64,000 bases of DNA from IMG/VR virus record IMGVR_UViG_2799113183_000001, positions 3,426 to 67,425 of that record; one strand, given 5' to 3'. The stretch comes from a virus. Its lineage: Duplodnaviria; Caudoviricetes. The notes under the pieces were generated by a model. It was not told the DNA's origin and made no database searches. It saw only the letters and a list, made by a program, of their open reading frames with translations. Shown here one piece after another: positions 1-63,063 of this stretch. The position numbers and the translations under genes were made by a program. Position 1 is the stretch's first letter; every line of letters starts with the position of its first letter.

Positions 1-14
1 GCAGCCTCGCAATC

Positions 15-1175
15 ATGGACGCGGTGCTGGCTGAGAAGCTGTTGGTCCACGTCCCCGAGTATGGGCGCTGGGATGACATCTTTTACGACGGCGCGAATGT
101 CACCGAGGGTATGGCTTACCTGATCGCGAATCAGCTTGAGGAAGATGCGGTAAACGCGAACGCTGGTAAGGCGATGTCGCTGCTCGCGAAGTGGCTTCCT
201 TCGGATTCGGTCAAGAGCGCGGAGCGCCGGAAGTTGCAGATCAATCTCCGGAAGCGTCTCGGCTTGGATCAGCGCACGTACCGAAAGCTGTTGTCCGCTC
301 TGCGTGACCGGCTTGGCCTGCTTGAGACTGACATGTCGCGGAAGCGTTGGGACAAGATCGACTTCTCCAAGCTGCCGGGGCAGGCGCACCGACGCCACGT
401 AAAGGCATTCTGGCGCAACACGGATGGCCGCTATGCGAAGTATCTGGAGTCTCTGGAGCGCGGCGAAGTCAAGGCCAACACGTCCACGCTGTACCCGTAC
501 GAGCTGTACGACATGGCGCAGCGGAGTGGCGAGGCTAGCGCGGCCAACGCGTTGTGGAAGAACCTGCCGGACTACACGCGCGGGAACGACGCCATCGTGA
601 TGGCTGACGTGTCCGGCTCGATGTGGGGACGACCGCTGTCGGTGGCGGTGTCGCTGGCACTGTATTTCGCGGAGCGCAACAAGGGTCCGTTCAAGGGCTA
701 CTTCATGACGTTCTCTGAGAAGCCGGAGCTTGTGACGGTCACGGGACGCAGCCTGGCCGACAAGCTGTCGAACATTCAGCGGTCGTCGTGGGGCTACAAC
801 ACGAACATCGTTGCGGCACTGGATGCAATCTTGCAGGCCGGTATCCGTTCGGGAAGCGTCCCCAAGACGCTCTATATCGTGTCCGACATGGAGTTTGATC
901 AGGCGGCACCGCTTGGTCGCAGCCACAGTTGGTCCACGGTGTTCGAGGCCGCGAAGGCAGAGTATGCCCGCCATGGGCTATATCTGCCGCATATCGTGTT
1001 CTGGAATGTCAACGGGCGCATTGGTAACCAGCCCGCGATTGCCCACGACGGCAATGTGACGTTGGTGTCGGGGTTCTCGCCTACGACGTTCAGCCAGGCC
1101 GTGGAGGGTAAGACTCCGCGCGAGCTGGTGGATTCGGTGGTGAACAGCCCTCGGTACGAGCGGATCGTTGTATGA
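15..1175 (+). CDS. DUF2828-family TROVE/Ro60-like vWA-domain protein (5' end lies upstream of window)
   Basis: Motifs PEYGRWDD, LLAKWLPS, YRKLLSAL, TLYPYEL, MIDAS-like DVSGSM, SDMEFD, IVFWNV, VSGFS; frame is open back to position 3, so the gene is truncated by the window edge. Confidence 0.85.
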   Translation: MDAVLAEKLLVHVPEYGRWDDIFYDGANVTEGMAYLIANQLEEDAVNANAGKAMSLLAKWLPSDSVKSAERRKLQINLRKRLGLDQRTYRKLLSALRDRLGLLETDMSRKRWDKIDFSKLPGQAHRRHVKAFWRNTDGRYAKYLESLERGEVKANTSTLYPYELYDMAQRSGEASAANALWKNLPDYTRGNDAIVMADVSGSMWGRPLSVAVSLALYFAERNKGPFKGYFMTFSEKPELVTVTGRSLADKLSNIQRSSWGYNTNIVAALDAILQAGIRSGSVPKTLYIVSDMEFDQAAPLGRSHSWSTVFEAAKAEYARHGLYLPHIVFWNVNGRIGNQPAIAHDGNVTLVSGFSPTTFSQAVEGKTPRELVDSVVNSPRYERIVV

Positions 1176-1309: not shown

Positions 1310-1316
1310 CAACTGG

Positions 1317-1346
1317 TTGGGACTGTCGTCCTACCAGTGTTACGGT
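1317..1346 (+). promoter_or_regulatory. possible SigA-type promoter for the ncRNA cluster
   Basis: TTGGGA-N18-TACGGT about 12 nt upstream of the first RNA unit. Confidence 0.3.
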
Positions 1347-1357
1347 AAAGATGGTTG

Positions 1358-1413
1358 TGGACGCATACAGCAACTAAACATACTTTCAATTTGGTGAAAA
1401 TATAATGCGTCCA
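1358..1413 (+). ncRNA. structured RNA unit 1 (GGAC stem + ACAGCAAC motif)
   Basis: TGGACGCAT(1358-66) pairs with ATGCGTCCA(1405-13); ACAGCAACTAAAC follows the 5' strand; inner TTTCA/TGAAA hairpin. Confidence 0.65.
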
Positions 1414-1416
1414 GTG

Positions 1417-1539
1417 TGGACCTTTACAGCAACTAAACGATTGCATAGTAAAGCCGGAGGTACGGGTTCGAGTCCCGTCGCCCGCCGTGAAGGCTGGCGT
1501 GGCTCAAGGGTAGAGCGCTGTTATCAAACCAAGGGTCCA
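1417..1539 (+). ncRNA. Y-RNA-like (YrlA-like architecture) RNA unit 2 with circularly permuted tRNA-like domain
   Basis: TGGACCTTT/AAGGGTCCA terminal stem; ACAGCAACTAAAC; T-arm ACGGG-TTCGAGT-CCCGT(1462-78); acceptor-like stem CGCCCGCC/GGCTGGCG closed by GTGAA; D-arm GCTC-AAGGGTA-GAGC(1502-16). Confidence 0.75.
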
Positions 1540-1554
1540 GTAAATATGCGGTTG

Positions 1555-1613
1555 AGGACATAAGCAGCAACCAAACACAATTGATTGCATTCAATGTCAA
1601 AAATGTGTGTCCT
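1555..1613 (+). ncRNA. structured RNA unit 3 (GGAC stem + GCAGCAAC motif)
   Basis: AGGACATA/TGTGTCCT terminal stem; GCAGCAACCAAAC; inner TTGA..TCAA hairpin. Confidence 0.6.
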
Positions 1614-1628
1614 GTTTAGCCGCGTTTG

Positions 1629-1664
1629 AGCCGACCAGCCTCGGGGGGTGCTGGTCGGCTTTTC
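1629..1664 (+). terminator. intrinsic terminator
   Basis: 11-bp stem AGCCGACCAGC/GCTGGTCGGCT followed by TTT. Confidence 0.8.
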
Positions 1665-1694
1665 TCGTATCTACTCACCTATCAGGGAGAAACA

Positions 1695-4615: not shown

Positions 4616-4630
4616 TCCGAAGGGGAGAAA

Positions 4631-5419
4631 ATGACGACAGCGACGACGACGCGGCGTCGAACTGCGAAGAAGGCCGCTGATCCGGAGGACGATCTGTCCG
4701 AGCCGGAAGCCAAGGAGGCGGAAGCGCCACCACTCAATTGGCCGTTACCGACTGTGTTCCATGCCTGGAACGCGGTCATGAACGACGTGCAGTCCATCGG
4801 TAAGGAATCGCGCAACGCACAGCAGAACTTCAACTTCCGTGGCATTGACGCGGTGTTGGATGCTGTTGGCCCGGTACTGCGCAAGCACGGTGTGGCGGTG
4901 GTGCCTACCGCATTCGAGCACGAGGCAGAGCGGTACACCACGAAGAGTGGCGGGCAGATGCTTAACCGCGTAGTGCAGGTCACCTACACCGTGTACGGGC
5001 CGCGAGGGGATTCATTCACGGGCAGCGTGTTCGGTGAGGCGGCGGACTCCGGCGACAAGGCGATGTCCAAGGCGCATTCTGTTGCGCTGCGTACGTTCTT
5101 GTTGCAGGCGTTGACCATTCCGACGGGTGATCCTGAGCCGGATGCGAGTTCGCATGAGCGCGCGACTCCGGCGACGGCGGCACGCGCTGAGGGCAAGCCG
5201 GTCCAGCACCAGTTGCCTCCCGAGAACGCCGAGTCCAAGCAGGAGCGCGAGGACTTGAAGGCAGTCGCGACGGAGAACGGCTGGGATCTGGGTGCGGTCG
5301 CGAAGGCATTCGAGAAGGGCAGTGCGGGCAAGCAGTTGCGTGAGGCATCGCCCGACGAGGTGATCGCGTTCACGAACAGCCTTGTGGGCGGGCTTGTGTC
5401 TGGATTCAAGACGAAATGA
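4631..5419 (+). CDS. erf: ERF-family ssDNA annealing protein
   Basis: FNFRGIDAV, GEAADSGDKAMSKAHSVALRTFL, IPTGDPEPD motifs. Confidence 0.85.
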   Translation: MTTATTTRRRTAKKAADPEDDLSEPEAKEAEAPPLNWPLPTVFHAWNAVMNDVQSIGKESRNAQQNFNFRGIDAVLDAVGPVLRKHGVAVVPTAFEHEAERYTTKSGGQMLNRVVQVTYTVYGPRGDSFTGSVFGEAADSGDKAMSKAHSVALRTFLLQALTIPTGDPEPDASSHERATPATAARAEGKPVQHQLPPENAESKQEREDLKAVATENGWDLGAVAKAFEKGSAGKQLREASPDEVIAFTNSLVGGLVSGFKTK

Positions 5420-9017: not shown

Positions 9018-9192
9018 CGGGGACGACGTTCCAGTGGGTGAAATGCCCGACTTGCCGACGCTCACTGAGCGGTCCGTCGAGGCTGTGCGCGCCCTCGCTG
9101 AGGGCCTTGTGGAGACGGCGACCGCGTTCTTCTTGGCGCTCGCTGAGGGGATCGCGGAGGGCTACGACGCAGCGGCAGGTGATGAGCAATGA
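8992..9192 (+). CDS. hypothetical protein
   Basis: Operon context, ATGA coupling to next gene. Confidence 0.5.
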   Translation: MNGIFNPLDGDDVPVGEMPDLPTLTERSVEAVRALAEGLVETATAFFLALAEGIAEGYDAAAGDEQ

Positions 9193-10034
9193 CCATTTCC
9201 TTGAAGGCTCTGGTTGGTGATCACGGCACCGTGTACGAGGTCGCTGACGTGTTTCAGTTCCCTGGCGGCGAGCTGCATTTGCGTGATGTTGAGCGTTTCG
9301 TGGGCGAGCCGGTGCAGTTGATCGCGGACATTCGTGGCGCGGAGCCGGAGGACTTGATCACGGCGGCGCTGTACGCGGACGTGGCGCAGGCGTACTGGTG
9401 GCCTCTCGTTGTGATGCTGCCTTACCTTCCGGCTGCGCGAGCGGATCGCGGTATCCCGCTGGGGGTTGCGGCATACGCAAAGCTGCTGAACAGCCTGGAG
9501 CCTGAGCAGGTTATCTGTGTGGACCCGCATTCCGAGGTAGCCGAGCGATGCTACGACGAACTGACGGTCCTTGACCCTGTGCCGCTGATGCAGCGCGCCA
9601 TCATGAACACGAAATATGACGCGGTGATCGCGCCGGACAAGGGTGCTGTGGAGCGGGCGATGAAGGCGGCGAAGGCGCTCGGGGTTGACCTGTACCGCGC
9701 CGATAAGGTCCGCGACTTTGAGACTGGCCGGATCGTTGACATTCACATGTCGGAGAAGTTGCCGTCATCGGGCAAGTACCTGGTGGTGGATGACATTTGT
9801 GACGGCGGTGGAACTTTCGCGGGGCTCGCTGAGGCGACTGGTCTGAGCCGGGATCACCTCGGGATCTGGATTACCCATGGGGTCTTCTCTGGCAAGGCGT
9901 CAGATCTGCACGCGAATTACGAGCGGATCTACACGACGGATTCACATCCCGGCGCAAGCCGGGGCACGGTGCGTCCGTGGGCGACTGTGCCGGTTTACGG
10001 CTACATGTTCCACAACATGAAGGACTTCCGATGA
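9189..10034 (+). CDS. Prs-like pyrophosphokinase (candidate NARP1 Adps)
   Basis: FPGGE, PYLPAARADR, VDPHS, APDKGA, VDDICDGGGT, THGVFS. Confidence 0.9.
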   Translation: MTISLKALVGDHGTVYEVADVFQFPGGELHLRDVERFVGEPVQLIADIRGAEPEDLITAALYADVAQAYWWPLVVMLPYLPAARADRGIPLGVAAYAKLLNSLEPEQVICVDPHSEVAERCYDELTVLDPVPLMQRAIMNTKYDAVIAPDKGAVERAMKAAKALGVDLYRADKVRDFETGRIVDIHMSEKLPSSGKYLVVDDICDGGGTFAGLAEATGLSRDHLGIWITHGVFSGKASDLHANYERIYTTDSHPGASRGTVRPWATVPVYGYMFHNMKDFR

Positions 10035-10447
10035 GCGAACTTGAGTACTGGCAACTTGAACGGATTGTCAACGCGCACGAGCTCTTGCAGCGTTACGACA
10101 TGACGGAAGCTGTAGCCCGTCAGAAGCTCGAAGAGTACCGAACCATTGAACGTTGGTTGGGTGCTGAACGGCTCTGGAAACAGAACGTCAAGGTGTGGTT
10201 GAAAGCCGAAACGCTGCACGCGTTGAAGCTAGAACGGCTCGACGGCGAATGTTATGCGGCAGCTTGCCGGGGTTGGACGCTGATGAAACAGTACGTCCCA
10301 TCCTTGGATGGCGTACCCACGTTCGACGCCCTGCCGGATTCCCTACAGTTCCGGTACGCATCGTTCGCCGCTGGCGTGCTCGGGAAGCTGCCACCCCCGG
10401 AAGTCAAATCAGCCAAGCAGCAAGTACGCGAGGCGTCCTATGCCTGA
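10031..10447 (+). CDS. hypothetical protein
   Basis: ATGA coupling. Confidence 0.6.
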   Translation: MSELEYWQLERIVNAHELLQRYDMTEAVARQKLEEYRTIERWLGAERLWKQNVKVWLKAETLHALKLERLDGECYAAACRGWTLMKQYVPSLDGVPTFDALPDSLQFRYASFAAGVLGKLPPPEVKSAKQQVREASYA

Positions 10448-10553
10448 GGTGTTGTTTGCAGGCGTCGCCGTCCTGATCCTCGGTTCTGCGCTGCTCGGGT
10501 TCGTGTGTGGATGGATCGCGACAACGAAATGGATTGAACGAAATGATGATTGA
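10440..10553 (+). CDS. small membrane protein
   Basis: One TM segment; overlaps both neighbours. Confidence 0.5.
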   Translation: MPEVLFAGVAVLILGSALLGFVCGWIATTKWIERNDD

Positions 10554-12033
10554 CTACTCACCCGTCGCGCCCTTGTTTCACACGGACGCGTACAAGCTGG
10601 ACCACAAGCGCCAGTACGACCTTGCAGGGAAGGTCACTCGCGTGTACTCGAACTACACGAACCGAAAGAGCCGGATTCCTGGTGTCGATAAGGTAGTGCA
10701 TTTCGGGTTGCAGGCTTACATTCAGCGGTACTTGATGGACGAGTTCGAGCCGTTCTTTAGCTCAGGAAAAGGCCACGCTTGTCGCCTGTACGAGACGCGC
10801 GTAGCGCAGGTTCTAGGGCCGGACGCTGCGAAAGCTATCGGTAGTGAGCACATTCGCGCTCTGCACAGTAAAGGCTATCTGCCTCTGCGGTTCTGCGCGG
10901 TACCCGAGGGGACACTAGTGCCTATCGGTGTTCCGTCTTTCACCGTGGAGAACACGCACCCGGATTTCTACTGGCTGACCAACTTTGTCGAAACCGGCCT
11001 GTCGGCAGGCATTTGGCAGGCATCTACCTCGGCAACGATCGCACGCGAGTATCGCAAGGTGCTCGAAGCGGCGGCGGAACGGTCGGGCAGTGACTTGGCT
11101 GCGGTTGACTGGCAGTGCCATGACTTCTCGTACCGGGGCATGTCCTCGCACGAGTCGGCAGCGGCTTCCGGTGCTGCGCACCTGCTGTCGTTTTCGGGCA
11201 CGGACTCGCTGGTCTCGCTGGACTGGATTGACCGCTACTACGGCGGTGCCTATGTGGCGGGCAGTGTTCCGGCGACTGAGCATTCGGTCATGTGTACCGG
11301 CATTGAGTCAGTGGGTGAACGGGAGACATTCTCGCGTCTACTGGATCTGTATCCGACTGGTGTTGTGTCTGTCGTTTCGGACACGTTCGATCTGTGGCGT
11401 GTACTCACCGAGTATCTTCCGGCGTTGCGAGACAAGATCGTTGCGCGTGACGGCAAGTTGGTGATTCGCCCTGACTCGGGTGACCCGGAGATGATTCTGT
11501 GCGGCGACCCGGAAGCGATGTCAGGAACGCCGGAGTGGTGGGGTGTCCTGCACCAGTTGTACGACGTGTTCGGCGGTGAAGTCAACGAAGCCGGATTCAT
11601 TGAGTTGAATCCGAAGGTCGGTGCAATCTACGGGGATTCGATCACGCTGGATCGCGCCCGGTCGATCACCGAGCACATGGCGCGGCTGCGCTGGGCGTCA
11701 ACGAATGTCGTGTTCGGTGTCGGCAGCTTCACTTATCAGTACAACACTCGGGACACGTTCGGGTCTGCGATGAAGGCTACGTGGGCTGAGGTTGACGGTG
11801 AGGGCGTGAATCTGCTCAAGGACCCGGTTACTGATGACGGGACGAAGAAGTCGGCAACGGGGCGTCTGGCAGTGCTGCACAAGGCCAAGGCATTCGGTGG
11901 GCAGATGTTCCTTGTCGAGCGAGCGGAGCAGTTCGCCGAAATGAACAGTCTGCTACAGCCAGTGTGGGAAGACGGCGAATTCATTAAGCGCCAGACCTTC
12001 TCGGATGTCCGGAACGTACTAGCGGGGCAGTGA
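10543..12033 (+). CDS. nicotinamide phosphoribosyltransferase-like protein (candidate NARP1 Namat)
   Basis: TDAYKLDH, HDFSYRG, PATEHS, VSDTFD, IRPDSGDP, IYGDSIT, FGVGS, DGTKKSATG. Confidence 0.92.
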   Translation: MMIDYSPVAPLFHTDAYKLDHKRQYDLAGKVTRVYSNYTNRKSRIPGVDKVVHFGLQAYIQRYLMDEFEPFFSSGKGHACRLYETRVAQVLGPDAAKAIGSEHIRALHSKGYLPLRFCAVPEGTLVPIGVPSFTVENTHPDFYWLTNFVETGLSAGIWQASTSATIAREYRKVLEAAAERSGSDLAAVDWQCHDFSYRGMSSHESAAASGAAHLLSFSGTDSLVSLDWIDRYYGGAYVAGSVPATEHSVMCTGIESVGERETFSRLLDLYPTGVVSVVSDTFDLWRVLTEYLPALRDKIVARDGKLVIRPDSGDPEMILCGDPEAMSGTPEWWGVLHQLYDVFGGEVNEAGFIELNPKVGAIYGDSITLDRARSITEHMARLRWASTNVVFGVGSFTYQYNTRDTFGSAMKATWAEVDGEGVNLLKDPVTDDGTKKSATGRLAVLHKAKAFGGQMFLVERAEQFAEMNSLLQPVWEDGEFIKRQTFSDVRNVLAGQ

Positions 12034-12341
12034 TGAGTGCCGACAACTGGACGACCTGTAAGGGCTGCGACATCGCCGCCGAGGCAGAGAGTGATGTGAC
12101 ACGTGCAGAGCTTGCTGTGGCATACGGCAGGGTCTCCCGCGAGGAATACGAACGCCTTCGCGCTGTCGCCGATGAAGCGATGGCGAAGACCCTGACTGCC
12201 CGTGAGCGCACGTTCCGTGAGGACTACGAAATCTACGGGGCGGAAACAGGAACCGTCACTGTGAGCTACAGCGGCAAGTGCACCGAATGTGGCTACGGAA
12301 CCTCATTCGAATCAGAGCATCCAATATGGAAGGGGAAATGA
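12030..12341 (+). CDS. hypothetical Zn-binding protein
   Basis: Two CxxC motifs; coupled overlaps. Confidence 0.6.
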   Translation: MMSADNWTTCKGCDIAAEAESDVTRAELAVAYGRVSREEYERLRAVADEAMAKTLTARERTFREDYEIYGAETGTVTVSYSGKCTECGYGTSFESEHPIWKGK

Positions 12342-13258
12342 TGGCGCTGAAACTTACGGCTATGCGCGGATACCCCGGCAGCGGAAAAACGACCAAGGCC
12401 AAGGAGATAGCGGCCCAGTCCGGAGCTGTCCGGGTCTGCCGCGATGACCTGCGGAAGATGCTGCACGACAACTACCACACCGGCAAGGCGGAGTGTGAGG
12501 ACCAGGTTACGACCGCCGAGCGGGCGCAAGTTCACGCGCTACTCCAGTCTGGTACGTCGGTGGTTGTGGACGCCACGCATCTGGAGCCGCGTTGGCTGCG
12601 TAAGTGGGCGAAGATGGCTGCCCAGTACGGGGCCAAGTTCGAGGTAGTGGACATCACCACCAGCGCGCTCAAGTCTGCGGCCAATGATGTGTTGCGCAAA
12701 GCTCGGGGTGAGCGTCACGTAGGCGGCGAAGTGATTGAGCGGATGGCCAAGCGCCACCCGATTCAAAACTGGCCCAAGGTGACTCAGCTCGAAACGTTCA
12801 CGCCAGAGCCGGTCGAGTGGGTCGAGGACCTGCCTACGGCCATCATCGTGGACATCGACGGCACTGTCGCCCACATGGATGGGCGCTCACCGTATGACTA
12901 CACGCAGGTGCACACCGACACCGTAGACGAGCAGGTGCGCTGGTTGGTCAACTCGATGTTCCGCAAGGGCGTCATGGTGCTGTTCGTGTCCGGCCGCGAC
13001 GACATTTGCCGGGACGAAACGGTGAAATGGCTGGAGTACCACGGGATTCTGTTTGATGAGCTGCACATGCGGCCTACCGGGGCCAAGGATGCGAACGGCA
13101 ACAAGCTGCCTGATTATCGGGTGAAGTACGACTTGTTCAACGCGAACATCCGGGGCAAGTACAACGTGCGGTTCGTGCTGGATGACCGTGACCAGGTTGT
13201 GAACCTTTGGCGGGCATTGGGTTTGAAGTGCTTGCAGGTACAGCCGGGGGACTTCTGA
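12338..13258 (+). CDS. pnk: polynucleotide 5'-kinase/3'-phosphatase (T4 PNK-like)
   Basis: GYPGSGKT P-loop, RDDLR, HAD motif DIDGT, SGR, DDR. Confidence 0.92.
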   Translation: MMALKLTAMRGYPGSGKTTKAKEIAAQSGAVRVCRDDLRKMLHDNYHTGKAECEDQVTTAERAQVHALLQSGTSVVVDATHLEPRWLRKWAKMAAQYGAKFEVVDITTSALKSAANDVLRKARGERHVGGEVIERMAKRHPIQNWPKVTQLETFTPEPVEWVEDLPTAIIVDIDGTVAHMDGRSPYDYTQVHTDTVDEQVRWLVNSMFRKGVMVLFVSGRDDICRDETVKWLEYHGILFDELHMRPTGAKDANGNKLPDYRVKYDLFNANIRGKYNVRFVLDDRDQVVNLWRALGLKCLQVQPGDF

Positions 13259-16246: not shown

Positions 16247-16584
16247 TGAAAGAGCTACGAGTCTATGGATGCTCGGACGATCTGGTTGAGTTCGAGGGCG
16301 CGTTCGATGAAGAATATGGCGCCTATGGGGTCCGTGCACAGTTCTTGGTCATCGCGCGATCGGATTACTTGAACGCGCGCCAGCTTTGGATTACCGCCGA
16401 GTACGGAGAACGAGAGTGGGAGCTTTGCGCATCCGCATTCTCGGGGGAATGCGATCTGAAATGGAACATTCGACTTGATCGGCGTACTGGAACAGGCCGG
16501 GACACCGACCCATGCCTGTTCATTGAAATAGATGACGACGAAACTGTCACGGTAATGCGATTGGACAAAGATGGCGAGTATTGA
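16246..16584 (+). CDS. hypothetical protein
   Basis: TGATG coupling; YGCSDDLVEFEG motif seen in actinophages. Confidence 0.65.
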   Translation: MKELRVYGCSDDLVEFEGAFDEEYGAYGVRAQFLVIARSDYLNARQLWITAEYGEREWELCASAFSGECDLKWNIRLDRRTGTGRDTDPCLFIEIDDDETVTVMRLDKDGEY

Positions 16585-17887
16585 GCCACCAGTAAATGCA
16601 AACTATGCCGCGACCATTGTCCAGATTCCCGAACCGCTTTCCGTGGTCGGGCTGGACAACCTGGTAGCGGTACCACTGTTCGGATACCAGGCACTCACGC
16701 AGAAGACCGGGGCGACAGCCGGTGACCTCAAGGTGTTGTTCACTGCTGAAACGCAGCTCGACGCCGAGTATGCCCGCGAAAACAACCTGTTCCGTGAGGC
16801 AACTCTGAACCGGGATGCCAACGAGACTGGGTATCTCGAAACGAATGCTCGCGTCCGCGCGATCCGGCTACGCAAGAACACGTCGAACGCACTCCTGATG
16901 CCTCTTGAGTCGTTGGCGTACACCGGCATTGACGTTCGCACGCTCAAGGTAGGCGATACGTTCGATAAGCTGAACGGTCGCACGATCTGCCGCAAGTACG
17001 AGGTGCCAACCAAGCCGGGTGCAGGCCCGCGCACAACGCCGAAGATCCGGCAGCGCGTCGATCAGAAGCTGTTCCCGATGCATCTGGACACTGAGCACCT
17101 GTTCCGGAACCTACAGGCATTCCGTGAGCCGAAGCACGTCATCGTGACGCAGAAGTTGCACGGCACGAGTTGGCGCGGTGGCCGCGTCCCGGCGCTGCGC
17201 GAGAAGAGCTGGCTTGAACGGGTCGTGGTCAACAAGTGGCTGCGCATCCCGACGCCAGAGACCAAGTACGAGGACGTGTTTGGTTCACGGCGTGTGATCA
17301 AGGGACGCTCGGACAACAACCACTACTACGACAGCGACGTGTGGACGGAGTTCGGCAAGACGATTGAAGGCCGGATTCCGGAGAACTTCATGGTTTACGG
17401 CGAGCTGGTCGGTTGGACGGACACGCAGTCACCAATCCAGAAGGGCTACACGTACAACGTGAAGCCGGGAGACGTGGAACTGTACGTCTACCGGGTGGCA
17501 ACGGTGAACGGCCAGGGCGTCATCGCTGATCTGTCATGGCAGGGCGTCAAGGACTTCGCAGCCGCGATCGGCGTCAAGGTGGCCCCCACCCTGTGGGAGG
17601 GGCAGATCATTTCGCGCGACAAGGTGGACGACGAAGACCTGATCGAGATGTACACGGACATGTACCTGGATCAGAACTTCGCAGCGCTCCACACGTCTGC
17701 CGAATTCGGTTTGGCGTACCCGGATGCTCCTGTGCCGCTATCGAATCCAACGTCGGTGGATGAGGGCGTGTGTGTCCGTGTTGAGGGTCAGGTGCCGCGC
17801 ATCTACAAGGCGAAGTCTCCGCTGTTCTTGGAGCACGAGACTAAGGCGCTCGACAAGGGCGAGTTGGATATGGAGGCTGCGGCGTAG
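16571..17887 (+). CDS. ATP-dependent RNA ligase (Rnl2/DRB0094-like)
   Basis: Nucleotidyltransferase motifs TQKLHGTS, YGELVG, EGVCVR, KAKS. Confidence 0.85.
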   Translation: MASIEPPVNANYAATIVQIPEPLSVVGLDNLVAVPLFGYQALTQKTGATAGDLKVLFTAETQLDAEYARENNLFREATLNRDANETGYLETNARVRAIRLRKNTSNALLMPLESLAYTGIDVRTLKVGDTFDKLNGRTICRKYEVPTKPGAGPRTTPKIRQRVDQKLFPMHLDTEHLFRNLQAFREPKHVIVTQKLHGTSWRGGRVPALREKSWLERVVVNKWLRIPTPETKYEDVFGSRRVIKGRSDNNHYYDSDVWTEFGKTIEGRIPENFMVYGELVGWTDTQSPIQKGYTYNVKPGDVELYVYRVATVNGQGVIADLSWQGVKDFAAAIGVKVAPTLWEGQIISRDKVDDEDLIEMYTDMYLDQNFAALHTSAEFGLAYPDAPVPLSNPTSVDEGVCVRVEGQVPRIYKAKSPLFLEHETKALDKGELDMEAAA

Positions 17888-35232: not shown

Positions 35233-36657
35233 ATGGCGATTGAACTGCCTTCTGCGATTTCACACAATGAGGTCCGGAAGTACGTTTCTGATGTCGTGTG
35301 GCCGGAGTTCATTCACCGGCGTATGAAGTTGGACAAGATTGCGAACTGGGCTCGTGGCGCGCAGCCGGATTATCTGATTGCGCCTGCGAACAAGGAGAAG
35401 CGCGCGCTGTTGAAGCTCGCGAAGACGCCGTGGCTCGGGCTGGTGGTGACGACGTTCACCCAGTGCTTGTTCGTGGATGGCTACCGGGCCGAGGGCGAGA
35501 AGTTGAACGCGCCGGGGCAGTGGCAGACGTGGAACGCCAACAACATGGCGAAGCAGCAGATCGGTATCCACCGTGCGGCGTTGACGTACGGGTATTCGTA
35601 CGCGCGTGCGCTGCCGGGTGTGGCGTTGGACGGCGCGAATCAGGCGACGTTGGCGGGGCTGTCGCCGCGATCCTTGTTGGCGCTCTACGAGAATCCGGTG
35701 TCGGATGAGTATCCGCGCTATGCGCTGGAGTTGATGCACAACGGGTCGGCGGTGCGGTTCTACACGGACCACTACTACTACGACCTTCCGATGCCTACCA
35801 GCGGTGAGTTTCCGGTTGATCCGGAGCCGGTCTATCACGGCGTCGGGGTGTGTCCGTTCGTGCGGTACGTGAATATGATGGATCTCGACGGCTTCACGAT
35901 GGGTGAGGTCGAGTATCTGATTCCGGCTGCGGCGAAGATCGACAAGACGGACTTTGACCGGCTGCTCGCACAGCATTACAACTCGTGGAAGGTCAAGGTA
36001 GCCACGGGTATTGACGAGCTGGATGCGGAGTCAACGCCGGAAGAGGCGCAGCAGGCCAAGTTCAAGCTGGCTCAGGACGACATTCTCATGCACGGTAATC
36101 ATGAGGCGAAGTTCTACACGCTTCCGGAGACCGCGTTGGACGGCTTCATTGCGTCTCATGAGCAGGACGTGGAATCGCTCGCAAGCAATGCGCAGCTTCC
36201 GTCCTACCTACTTACCGGCAAGCTCGCGAATCTGTCCGCAGATGCGCTTACGGCGGCAACGAAGGGCACCACACAGAAGCTCTATGAGCGTCAGGTGACC
36301 TTCGGGTCTGCGCACAACCAGTTGATGCGGTTGGCTGCGCACGTCGAGGGCGACGCGGCGGCGGCTCGGGACTTCACGGCGTCAGTGTCGTGGCAGGACA
36401 CGCAGATTCGTTCGTTGGCGCAGGCTGTTGATGCGTACGGCAAGGCCGCGCAGATGCTTGGTATGCCCAAGCAGTTCTTGTGGTCTCTCATTCCGGGTAT
36501 CACGCAGTCGGACGTTGAGGCGATGGAGAAGCATTTCCACGACGACGATCCGGTGACTAAGACATTGCTGTATTGGAACAACGGTCCGGGCCAGGACCCC
36601 AATCAGCAGAAGCAGCAAGGGGTTCCGGGTAACGACGGGCTCCGCGCTGCGGCATAA
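35233..36657 (+). CDS. portal protein (SPP1 gp6-like)
   Basis: Position after TerL; WNANNM, CPFVRYVN, ANLSADAL motifs. Confidence 0.92.
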   Translation: MAIELPSAISHNEVRKYVSDVVWPEFIHRRMKLDKIANWARGAQPDYLIAPANKEKRALLKLAKTPWLGLVVTTFTQCLFVDGYRAEGEKLNAPGQWQTWNANNMAKQQIGIHRAALTYGYSYARALPGVALDGANQATLAGLSPRSLLALYENPVSDEYPRYALELMHNGSAVRFYTDHYYYDLPMPTSGEFPVDPEPVYHGVGVCPFVRYVNMMDLDGFTMGEVEYLIPAAAKIDKTDFDRLLAQHYNSWKVKVATGIDELDAESTPEEAQQAKFKLAQDDILMHGNHEAKFYTLPETALDGFIASHEQDVESLASNAQLPSYLLTGKLANLSADALTAATKGTTQKLYERQVTFGSAHNQLMRLAAHVEGDAAAARDFTASVSWQDTQIRSLAQAVDAYGKAAQMLGMPKQFLWSLIPGITQSDVEAMEKHFHDDDPVTKTLLYWNNGPGQDPNQQKQQGVPGNDGLRAAA

Positions 36658-61155: not shown

Positions 61156-61167
61156 AGGGGTTTGGGG

Positions 61168-63063
61168 ATGTCGGGGCCAACGAGGTCGATGATCCTTGGG
61201 ATCGATAAGAACTCCTACCGGCCTCTTTTGGATGCTGTGCACGCGATGGCCACCAAGTACGAGCAGCGGGTCTCCACGTTCAAGGGTTATGTCGATAAGC
61301 CTGGTGGCACCGCGTGGGAGGGTCAGACCGCCGAGGCGGGGCAACACAATGTCAACGACGGCTGGAAAGTCACGGCGCGGATTCAGGACATAGACACCAA
61401 GTTCCAAACGGTTGCTGGTCTGGCGGTAGATCATACGATTGTGCCCGAGTTGGGTAACTGTCAGACCATGATCGAAAACATTGAAGCTCAACGCAATAAG
61501 GGTCTGACCCTCACCGAGGATTTGGAGGTGGGTTATGACCCTCCACCTGGGGTGAGCGAGAAGCAGGCTGCCGAGAACGCGAAGGTCGCGGAGGCCAGGG
61601 GCAAGGAGCTTAAGGAGTCGGCGCGCAAATGGTGGGAGGCCGAACAAGAGGTCAAGCGCCTGGCCGAAGGTGCCGCCCGTGACATGGAGAACGAAGTCAA
61701 CAGTGCCGCAGGCACATTCGACATCGGTAAAGCCGTCAAAGACACCGCACCCGGCAAGCCCGACACCGCGCAGGACTCCAATTACTACAAGGAGCTGTAC
61801 CCGAAGAAGACCGCTCCGGCCTCGGTTGATCCTGGTGCCGGGACGCTCGGTGACAAGCTGGAACACATCAACAACCCCGGTCTCACCAAACCGGTTGCTG
61901 CGCCGGTAGACCCGAATGCTCCGGTCTACGGGCCGCCATCGGTGCAGAAGCTCGATCCAAACAGCCCCGAGGGCAAAGCCGCGATCGACAAGATGCGTGT
62001 CATCTTGTCTCCGGGCCGTACGCCAGCCGAAGTCGAAGACATCATCAATCGGGCCAAGAACTATGACCCCAACAAGCAGCTACCACCACCGAAGGCGCCA
62101 GAGGGCAACCCAACGCCGCATCGGCAATCCGGTGGCGAAGCGTTCGCCGAGTCGTGGGATCAAGCTGGCCGCGCCAAGGATGACCTGTTGGGCATTAACG
62201 GTGGCGACCACGCGAAAGAGGCGTGGAAGGGCGTCGCTAAAGGGCTATGGGATGTCGTCAACCCCGATCCCGTCCACCAAGTTGAACGCGGCATCGACCA
62301 GGCTAAAGGCGCTATCGATGAAGTCAAATCCGGCATCGACAACCCCAAAGCCTTCATCGGCAAACACGGCATAGAAATCGCCGCAGGCATCGCCACCGCA
62401 CCCCTGGGTGGCGAAGGCGCACTACTGGGCACCGAAGGCCGCGCCCTCACCCACGGACTCGAAGACGCTGCGCCAGGGCACCCACCCACCCCGCACAGCG
62501 TTGAATCCCCAAGCAGCGCAACCCACACCCCCATTTCGGATCATCCTGCACCGGCAAGTGCCGACCACTCGCAGCCACCGGACCACCCAAAGGGGCCTTT
62601 CCCGCTTCACGGCGAGCCGGGTTCTTACGGATATGACGCAGACGGTAACCGACTTCCATACGCAAACGGGGGCAGACCAGGCTATGCGGCAGACCAAGAG
62701 GCTACGACTTTCGACATCACACGCCAGGAGCAGCTTGCAGACATTGCAAACGGCGTGACCAAATTACCCCCGCCCGGACCAAGCGAGGTTTGGGTGCGGC
62801 TAATGGATGACGCGGAAGGCCCAGGTGTACGCGTGACAGAGACCGGCGAGCGGTACGGTTTAGTTCAATGGGAACCGGGTATGCCCAGAAAAGAAGTGTG
62901 GGACATGGGGCATGTACCTGGCTCCGAGTATCGGTACCTCAAAGAACTGTATATGAGCGGACAAATCACGCACGACCAATTCATGGCCGAGGTTAAGAAT
63001 CCAAACAACTATCGAGTTGAAGACTGGCTAAGAAATAGATCCCACGTGGACGAAGGCCCGTGA
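61168..63063 (+). CDS. polymorphic toxin: WXG-like N-terminus, Pro-rich linker, GH-E-type HNH/EndoVII nuclease C-terminus
   Basis: N-terminal WEG motif; C-terminal WDMGH..G.EY...F...NP.NYRVE...NRSH.DE. Confidence 0.85.
   Translation: MSGPTRSMILGIDKNSYRPLLDAVHAMATKYEQRVSTFKGYVDKPGGTAWEGQTAEAGQHNVNDGWKVTARIQDIDTKFQTVAGLAVDHTIVPELGNCQTMIENIEAQRNKGLTLTEDLEVGYDPPPGVSEKQAAENAKVAEARGKELKESARKWWEAEQEVKRLAEGAARDMENEVNSAAGTFDIGKAVKDTAPGKPDTAQDSNYYKELYPKKTAPASVDPGAGTLGDKLEHINNPGLTKPVAAPVDPNAPVYGPPSVQKLDPNSPEGKAAIDKMRVILSPGRTPAEVEDIINRAKNYDPNKQLPPPKAPEGNPTPHRQSGGEAFAESWDQAGRAKDDLLGINGGDHAKEAWKGVAKGLWDVVNPDPVHQVERGIDQAKGAIDEVKSGIDNPKAFIGKHGIEIAAGIATAPLGGEGALLGTEGRALTHGLEDAAPGHPPTPHSVESPSSATHTPISDHPAPASADHSQPPDHPKGPFPLHGEPGSYGYDADGNRLPYANGGRPGYAADQEATTFDITRQEQLADIANGVTKLPPPGPSEVWVRLMDDAEGPGVRVTETGERYGLVQWEPGMPRKEVWDMGHVPGSEYRYLKELYMSGQITHDQFMAEVKNPNNYRVEDWLRNRSHVDEGP

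Follow-up and report, generated by a model that had tools for sequence, protein, structure and literature searches.

Ro60/Y-RNA particles are a classic and still poorly understood RNA-surveillance system. This work concerns an array of three small RNA units beside a DUF2828 gene of a mycobacterial prophage, which appears to be an undescribed cousin of that particle. The array was read in a window of 64,000 nucleotides (nt), the whole stretch of DNA analysed, which corresponds to bases 3426-67425 of a 67.4-kb IMG/VR provirus record (IMGVR_UViG_2799113183_000001). The named nearest relatives of this DNA are the temperate cluster L mycobacteriophages (Lclasvirinae).

In the closest described system, the protein Rsr (TROVE plus vWA) is accompanied by the RNAs YrlA and YrlB (RF02553, PMC4201824). 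The survey that defined their GNCGAA(N)G site and tRNA-like module covered only TROVE-annotated genomes (Chen et al. 2014, PMC4201824), and the same paper reports that YrlA binds host Rsr in M. smegmatis and that Y RNAs block the Ro60 cavity. In phages, the TROVE-type Ro60 of phiLo binds two CGAA-containing RNAs and host PNPase (PMC12135203). A further point of comparison is provided by the Class I RNAs of social amoebae, reported to be unique to Dictyostelia (PMC7919456). These have a short terminal stem with an adjacent 11-nt motif, are found with the search pattern GTTGRCCTTACAGCAA ... GTCAACTG (PMC5054030), and are reported to be bound by the RRM protein Rnp1A (PMC7919456; Aspegren 2004, Avesson 2011, Kjellin 2021).

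Like Rsr with YrlA/YrlB and phiLo with Yrl1/Yrl2, the prophage locus places a gene for a ring-type protein with HEAT repeats and a vWA domain carrying a MIDAS (metal ion-dependent adhesion site) beside small RNAs on the same strand. As in Y RNAs (RF00019, RF02553), the 5' and 3' ends of each RNA form a helix and the 5' strand holds a conserved element; as with YrlA, one RNA contains a permuted tRNA-like module; and, like other phage Ro60 systems, the locus is found in phages with RNA-repair genes. In contrast to Rsr, the protein belongs to DUF2828/DUF7788 and has no sequence match to TROVE or to a solved Ro60, and the handle of the RNAs is a clamp of 7 base pairs (bp) followed by unpaired ACAGCAAY, rather than GNCGAA(N)G or a bulged GGUCCGA helix. 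The cluster L homologues (LeBron gp53, Archie gp55) are 57-65% identical, lie at the same genome position with the same three-unit array and are already annotated as 'Ro-like RNA binding protein', but public annotation covers only the protein. A literature search, with most subscription journals outside its coverage, returned no description of the array RNAs, of DUF2828-linked RNAs or of this handle in phages.

Three clamp-closed RNA units beside a Ro60-shaped protein

The features of the locus are listed below in window coordinates; R1 is a covariance model built only from mycobacterial units.

1-1175 (+), 3' 390 codons of the DUF2828/DUF7788-vWA gene (full gene 478 amino acids, L002 3164-4600)
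1172-1309 (+), strongly hydrophobic open reading frame of 45 codons, coding status uncertain, its ATG overlapping the DUF2828 stop codon (ATGA)
1312-1338 (+), hairpin between the coding region and the array, -15.5 kcal/mol, with a hairpin at the same place in other loci
1339-1344 (+), TACGGT, candidate -10 hexamer (TANNNT) suggested by comparison with other loci
1358-1413 (+), unit 1: clamp 1358-1366/1405-1413, unpaired ACAGCAAC at 1367-1374, small internal hairpin; 60.9 bits with R1
1417-1539 (+), unit 2: clamp 1417-1425/1531-1539, ACAGCAAC at 1426-1433, permuted tRNA-like core
1462-1478, 1479-1499 and 1502-1516 (+), T arm, closed acceptor-like hairpin and D arm of the unit 2 core, placed by the YrlA match and covariation
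1555-1613 (+), unit 3: clamp 1555-1562/1606-1613, GCAGCAAC at 1564-1571, internal hairpin with a UUGCAU loop; 54 bits with R1
1628-1667 (+), intrinsic terminator: GC-rich hairpin 1628-1661 (-25.7 kcal/mol, z = -2.95), then a U tract

An independent blind scan of the 64 kb on both strands, in which CAGC(A/G)A had to follow one arm of a helix whose other arm lies downstream, recovered three units at 1358-1413, 1417-1539 and 1555-1613. These are exactly the units to which an earlier sequence-only reading of this DNA had assigned one common architecture. Their clamp helices of 9, 9 and 8 bp (UGGACGCAU/AUGCGUCCA, UGGACCUUU/AAGGGUCCA and AGGACAUA/UGUGUCCU) agree with the terminal helix of 8-9 bp described in that reading, although only 7 bp of it are conserved in relatives. 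Similarly, the (A/G)CAGCAAC portion of the long unpaired motif it proposed is present, whereas the tail past CAGCAAY is not conserved at other loci. The remaining 23 matches of the scan in the window are weak CAGCGA-type sites without a GGAC/GUCC helix, and R1 matched none of them. With one mismatch allowed, the 12-mer CAGCAACYAAAC has three copies in the window, all within the array (chance expectation 0.6; three copies were reached in 1 of 100 shuffles).

The array starts 183 nt past the end of the DUF2828 gene. Its placement downstream of that gene on the same strand thus stands, with the qualification that the 45-codon frame (1172-1309) and a hairpin intervene. The units measure 56, ~123 and 59 nt, with spacers of 3 nt between units 1 and 2 and 15 nt between units 2 and 3. 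Region 1345-1668 folds into three stem-closed domains plus the terminator hairpin (z = -2.45). Units 1 and 3 have GC contents of 0.36 and 0.37 against 0.58 for the window, so that the array is AT-richer than its surroundings. Unit 3 is extended by an outer helix of ~1546-1554 with 1614-1625, and a GCGG/CCGC helix around unit 3 is kept in all mycobacterial loci read.

Two small motifs recur within the units. UUGCAU(A) is found in hairpin loops at 1442-1447 and 1586-1591 of the window, in unit 2 of L010 and L012 and in unit 1 of L027. Some units contain a 5-bp stem with a 7-nt CU-NNN-AA loop resembling an anticodon arm, for example CUGCUAA (L026 unit 1, L027 unit 3) or CUUCUAA (L010 unit 1).

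The adjoining protein matched the Pfam families DUF7788 (2e-39) and DUF2828 (2.8e-26), gave weak vWA matches, and falls into PHROG 850 ('RNA-binding protein'). TROVE (PF05731) was without a Pfam match at E <= 10, and phmmer and a 69-sequence profile run against all PDB chains found no Ro60. An AlphaFold2 model from the 69-sequence alignment reached a predicted local distance difference test (pLDDT) score of 93.3 and a predicted template-modelling (pTM) score of 0.92. With this model, the first 12 Foldseek matches were Ro60 chains (best E 2.5e-9), the PDB matches including 1yvr, 2i91 and 1yvp over ~400 residues. VIA-align aligned 408 residues with Xenopus Ro60 (Z 23.1, root-mean-square deviation 4.0) and gave Z 15.7 for Ro60 of the Thermus phage phiLo, whereas vWA-only structural matches reached Z ~10. 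The MIDAS residues D290, S292, S294, T355 and D383 (DxSxS...T...D) are invariant, and an RD(I/V)RGGxGER segment is strongly conserved. The helical plus vWA layout that the sequence-only reading had ascribed to DUF2828 is therefore recovered in the model. Since the fold matches while sequence searches do not, the protein as modelled is a HEAT-repeat ring with a vWA domain, Ro60-like in shape and not TROVE by sequence, and the comparison of modelled folds is the only link between the two families.

Conservation in mycobacterial phages and beyond

The protein is 59-99% identical in 20 IMG/VR proviruses or phages, and homologues are also present in the GenBank genomes of Archie, Aegeus, DirkDirk, DyoEdafos, Samty and LeBron. 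All these mycobacterial loci, from IMG/VR and GenBank alike, have three units within 250-400 nt past the gene, followed by a terminator. The array was read in 17 distinct mycobacterial loci plus Archie and LeBron, and they share a common design: G-UGGNC-NN(N), 1-3 nt, CAGC(A/G)A(C/U), a variable inner part, and a complementary arm ending GNCCA-G. The handle at these loci is a UGGNC.../...GNCCA clamp together with single-stranded ACAGCAAY.

When 25 distinct short units were aligned, 100% of the cells in the 7-bp clamp were paired, and shifting the register by 1-3 columns lowers the pairing to 18-46%. Both sides change in four of the seven clamp pairs (U-A/A-U; A-U/U-A/G-C; A-U/G-C/C-G; C-G/G-C). 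The clamp contains 27 double-change cells compared with 6.1 +/- 3.1 in shuffles, none of the 500 shuffles reaching 27. The covariation first noticed between the stems of the three window units therefore extends to the relatives.

Of 95 mycobacteriophage records with the gene, 87 also gave a blastn match to the array, in each case at the position of the gene. Among the 12 matches listed of these 87, ten have no annotated feature under the array and two have a small hypothetical coding sequence (CDS). Such CDSs over the array include Aegeus gp61 (L024 2984-3127), Samty gp55 (L027 3083-3277), MsGreen gene 55 and MiniMac gene 58, and are probably mis-annotations.

The DUF2828 protein family is far larger than its mycobacterial branch, comprising 6,236 clusters at 50% identity. 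Its members occur in 706 phage records, including Felixounavirus (Felix O1-like), Listeria Pecentumvirus (P100-like), and staphylococcal, enterococcal, campylobacter, vibrio and aeromonas phages. For a wider survey we assembled 76 non-identical IMG/VR DUF2828 loci whose proteins are 35-65% identical (set 1) and 80 bacterial or archaeal genome contigs (set 2). In set 1, the gene strand had 290 units with a stem and CAGCRA, compared with 66 for the opposite strand and 55-74 for shuffled sequence; 74 of the 76 loci had at least one. Their number has a sharp maximum within 750 nt upstream of the gene and a second one just downstream. In the 80 contigs of set 2, the gene strand had 274 stem-plus-motif units versus 96 on the opposite strand.

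The R1 model, applied with a cut-off of E <= 0.1, matched 49 sites beside DUF2828 genes in set 1 and 29 in set 2, and all 78 lie on the gene strand. All seven clamp pairs covary among the set 1 matches, with 81 double-change cells compared with 24 in shuffles. Examples of the clamp variants are UGGAC in mycobacteria, UAGAC and AAGAC in other loci, and AGAU in L037-L044. A search for the motif beside other DUF2828 genes, which the sequence-only reading had proposed as a check on its claim, was thus clearly positive. What that reading had missed is the YrlA-like module of unit 2, the existing 'Ro-like' annotation and the reach of the family far past mycobacteriophages; its claims that were open to checking all stood.

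Searches of complete records point to the same linkage. In LeBron (73 kb) and the Listeria phage LMTA-34 (138 kb), R1 matched only beside the DUF2828 gene, and LMTA-34 has three units just upstream of it. In a Mycolicibacterium genome of 5.8 Mb, the lone R1 match at E <= 0.01 lies ~1.1 kb downstream of the DUF2828 gene, where three units stand in a row. Among 151 genomes of the bacterial family of this Mycolicibacterium, the protein domain is found only in that one genome. R1 gave no RNA match in the 151 genomes at E <= 0.001, which is a soft negative control, as the stricter filters missed even the known weak match in G001.

In some phages the units are found together with tRNA genes. Felixounavirus bumzen, an Escherichia phage, has four AGAAGACC...CAGCAA units interleaved with tRNA genes past its DUF2828 ('vWFA protein') gene (L028 ~1945-2660). 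Cronobacter phage S13 (L030 4372-4614 and ~4625-4766) has a long ACAGCAAT unit with a T arm directly after two over-long tRNA genes. As separate observations, one bumzen unit shares the internal loop UGCGGAU with the unit 1 of cluster L phages (L017 3971-4022), and the two annotated 'tRNAs' of S13 (121 and 113 nt) share an intron-like insert of ~28 nt in the anticodon region (ACGCAAACTGA.AAGTTTGTATTCAGCA).

The handle, the tRNA-like module of unit 2 and other small RNAs

A comparison with the Rfam YrlA and Y-RNA models, also suggested in the sequence-only reading, divided the array. Units 1 and 3 had no Rfam match, whereas the core of unit 2 fits YrlA, with a local match at 1461-1516 (25.5 bits, E 0.018, model positions 30-81). 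The unit 2 homologues of DirkDirk and Samty (L025, L027) match the full YrlA model at 38-40 bits. The core consists of a T arm with a GGUUCGA loop, a closed hairpin where the acceptor stem would be, and the D arm GCUCAAGGGUAGAGC, all with compensatory changes among ten homologues. The outer YrlA stems and the GNCGAA Ro60 site do not fit unit 2, the aligned outer stems containing non-canonical pairs. The scores of unit 2 and of its best homologues are below the RF02553 gathering threshold of 69 bits. This threshold is a weak criterion for phage members, because the accepted YrlA region of a cluster C phage, Bxz1, scores only 32.5 bits.

The tRNA-like module is missing from the 50-nt unit 2 RNA of the Aegeus-like group (L010-L016, L024) and can therefore be regarded as exchangeable cargo. 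It is conceivable, though we hold it only tentatively, that handles and effector modules are exchangeable between two Ro60-like systems and that the YrlA module was captured by the mycobacterial branch of one ancient family.

Bxz1 (156 kb) encodes a canonical TROVE Ro60 and served as a control. ACAGCAA is absent from its two RNAs, which contain GCCGAGAG and GCCGAAGG, and R1 found no match in the Bxz1 genome. Conversely, the array has neither GNCGAA nor a bulged helix, its conserved element being the unpaired (A/G)CAGCAAY. The claim that the motif differs from the bulged helix of classical Y RNAs is thereby upheld. With TROVE Ro60 and GNCGAA-type RNAs in Bxz1 and DUF2828 with ACAGCAA here, two Ro60-shaped families with two handles are present in phages of one host genus.

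The dictyostelid Class I RNAs resemble the units in several respects. They are ~42-65 nt long, which is comparable with units 1 and 3 (56 and 59 nt), and have a covarying stem that joins the ends, a variable interior and clustered genes. The motif beside their 5' stem ends in ACAGCAA, so that only the last 7 of its 11 nt are shared. They also have a conserved 5' G and a 3' end of (C)UGU, and unit 3 ends in CCUGU. However, Class I RNAs are eukaryotic and nuclear, with a Dictyostelium upstream sequence element (DUSE) promoter ~60 nt upstream, and no published link connects them with a DUF2828 protein. Since the array belongs to a bacterial prophage and not to dictyostelid nuclear genes with DUSE, its units are look-alikes or distant relatives of Class I RNAs and not members. 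A bolder interpretation, which we consider possible but doubtful, is that the RNAs with clamp and ACAGCAA belong together with DUF2828 proteins in a single ancient ribonucleoprotein family that extends across prophages and phages of many bacterial phyla, with Class I RNAs as its eukaryotic branch. This would imply an unrecognised DUF2828-type partner in amoebae.

Expression, protein partner and possible role

The closing hairpin and U tract of the array have equivalents in the other loci read, in agreement with the strong terminator noted in the sequence-only reading. The conserved G of unit 1 follows the end of a TANNNT hexamer by 7 nt in the L010, L012, L017, L019 and L020 groups and by 12 nt in the window; a promoter may be proposed solely from this conserved hexamer. 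Given the one terminator, the close spacing of the units and the layout of hairpin and hexamer, a single primary transcript of ~300 nt would be expected, possibly processed into three RNAs. Small open reading frames that overlap the array probably encode no protein, since the differences between homologues include compensatory changes and indels of lengths not divisible by three. The 45-codon frame, which has no Pfam or PHROG match, is present in L004-L007 and absent from L008 and the cluster L phages.

Judged from these comparisons, the three small RNAs are probably dedicated partners of the adjoining DUF2828 protein, with which they would form a particle of the Ro60/Y-RNA type. In the proposed mechanism, transcription of the array would end at the 1628-1667 terminator, having started either at a promoter-like element of the array itself or as read-through of the gene. 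The resulting transcript would then be used as one RNA of three domains or cut into RNAs of ~56, 123 and 59 nt. Each RNA would offer the same handle, the 7-bp clamp (UGGNC.../...GNCCA) followed by single-stranded ACAGCAAY, and by analogy with Ro60 and the terminal helix of Y RNAs this handle may be recognised by the ring-shaped HEAT-repeat and vWA protein. The variable inner part could be the working module, a small hairpin in units 1 and 3 and in unit 2 a YrlA-like tRNA mimic that might engage tRNA-binding enzymes. The RNAs may serve as tethers between the protein and its targets and also gate a protein that is harmful when free.

Several points weigh against this proposal. Adjacency and co-inheritance alone are no proof of a physical complex. 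The stem-plus-motif scan presupposes a stem, and the strength of its counts comes from the strand, position and shuffle controls and from the covariance-model search. Units 1 and 2 are just 3 nt apart, so that separate mature RNAs would require processing. A sigma-70 consensus scan of 1000-1800 found no promoter; the same scan also missed the terminator, whose stem has an internal mismatch. Finally, Dictyostelium RNAs with the same handle are reported to be bound by Rnp1A (PMC7919456), which makes a different protein partner conceivable here.

Such a partner could be host Rsr/Ro60, an RRM-type protein or the phage RNA-repair enzymes, with the units as real structured RNAs and DUF2828 merely as a co-regulated neighbour. 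The precedent of Rnp1A favours this alternative, as does the YrlA-type module of unit 2, YrlA itself being bound by host Rsr in M. smegmatis (PMC4201824). Nevertheless, a DUF2828 gene on the same strand is the sole feature shared by the actinobacterial, firmicute, proteobacterial and uncultured phage loci, the handle has no GNCGAA site for Rsr, and the TROVE-Ro60 phage has no such units. We therefore regard another partner as unlikely.

It is more improbable still that the RNAs, acting like a type III antitoxin or as nothing but a gate, chiefly inhibit a harmful protein and have no targeting or effector modules. LeBron gp53 expressed without the RNAs inhibits growth of M. smegmatis (toxicity score 2, PMC13148394), Y RNAs can block a Ro60 cavity (PMC4201824), and the units stand in tandem beside the gene, all of which would suit an antitoxin. 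However, the units are not identical repeats, and their elaborate inner modules, one of them a conserved tRNA mimic, differ from each other; no nuclease domain is present in the protein; and the arrays vary in number and may lie on either side of the gene. Inhibition would still need binding, and this alternative thus refines the dedicated-partner explanation rather than replacing it.

The position of the units between gene and terminator, possibly in one transcript and without a consensus promoter, would also be compatible with cis-acting parts of the mRNA (3' untranslated region stabilisers, attenuators or processing sites). This is very unlikely, as the units lie upstream of the gene in most other phages or are interleaved with tRNA genes in Felixounavirus, and a conserved single-stranded heptamer with a compensated 7-bp clamp across phyla is not expected of terminators. 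Further points against it are the tRNA mimicry of unit 2 and the conserved TANNNT hexamer in front of unit 1. That the units are functionless, being either decayed or permuted tRNA genes or repeats of tRNA origin, is hardly credible despite the T and D arms of unit 2 and the location of units within tRNA arrays of other phages, since ARAGORN called no tRNA in the array (and 16 elsewhere in the window), units 1 and 3 show nothing tRNA-like, conservation is strongest in the handle, which is not of tRNA type, the structure is under selection, as its covariation shows, and free decay was not seen in the 87 cluster L records. None of these alternatives explains the strand- and position-specific, cross-phylum linkage to DUF2828 as well as a dedicated RNA-protein partnership, which is why we prefer the latter.

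The genome arm that contains the locus also encodes an ERF recombinase, a DnaB helicase, a pair of phosphoribosyltransferase (PRTase) and Nampt-like proteins, the 16 tRNAs (at 23.4-28.5 kb) and two RNA-repair enzymes:

12278-13258, polynucleotide kinase-phosphatase (Pnkp)
16571-17887, RNA ligase

The LeBron kinase and ligase are each growth-inhibitory alone (PMC13148394). Because Pnkp, RNA ligase and 16 tRNAs are encoded in the same arm, a particle of this kind would most likely act in phage-host conflict over tRNA and RNA damage.

Three further observations were made in the window. The PRTase-like and Nampt-like genes lie close together at 9189-12033 (+) and represent a possible NAD+ salvage or reconstitution pathway. 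At the prophage end, 61162-63063 (+) encodes a 633-amino-acid protein with a C-terminal GH-E HNH/EndoVII nuclease domain of the polymorphic-toxin type. A motif similar to AACTAAAYAT, which resembles the tail of the unit 1 motif, is found at boundaries of late structural genes (9 matches versus 2.2 expected), with (+) strand sites at 36656, 38667, 41556, 43403, 48340 and 53904. These copies mostly span a stop codon or end at a start ATG, and possible roles of the motif are as a leader of late genes or in translational coupling. AACTAAAYAT was considered as part of the RNA family and rejected: the boundary copies have neither CAGC nor the clamp, and the tail past CAGCAAY is not conserved elsewhere.

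The array is unannotated in the public cluster L records looked at, with a small hypothetical CDS over it in four, and these annotations can now be corrected. The locus is a good entry point for experiments: cluster L phages grow on M. smegmatis mc2155, LeBron gp53 is toxic, there are only three RNAs, and unit 2 joins the new handle to a YrlA mimic. If the proposed partnership is true, phages would have a second and far more widespread version of the Ro60/Y-RNA system, with a different protein family and a different handle and open to phage genetics, and it may account for the Class I orphan RNAs of social amoebae.

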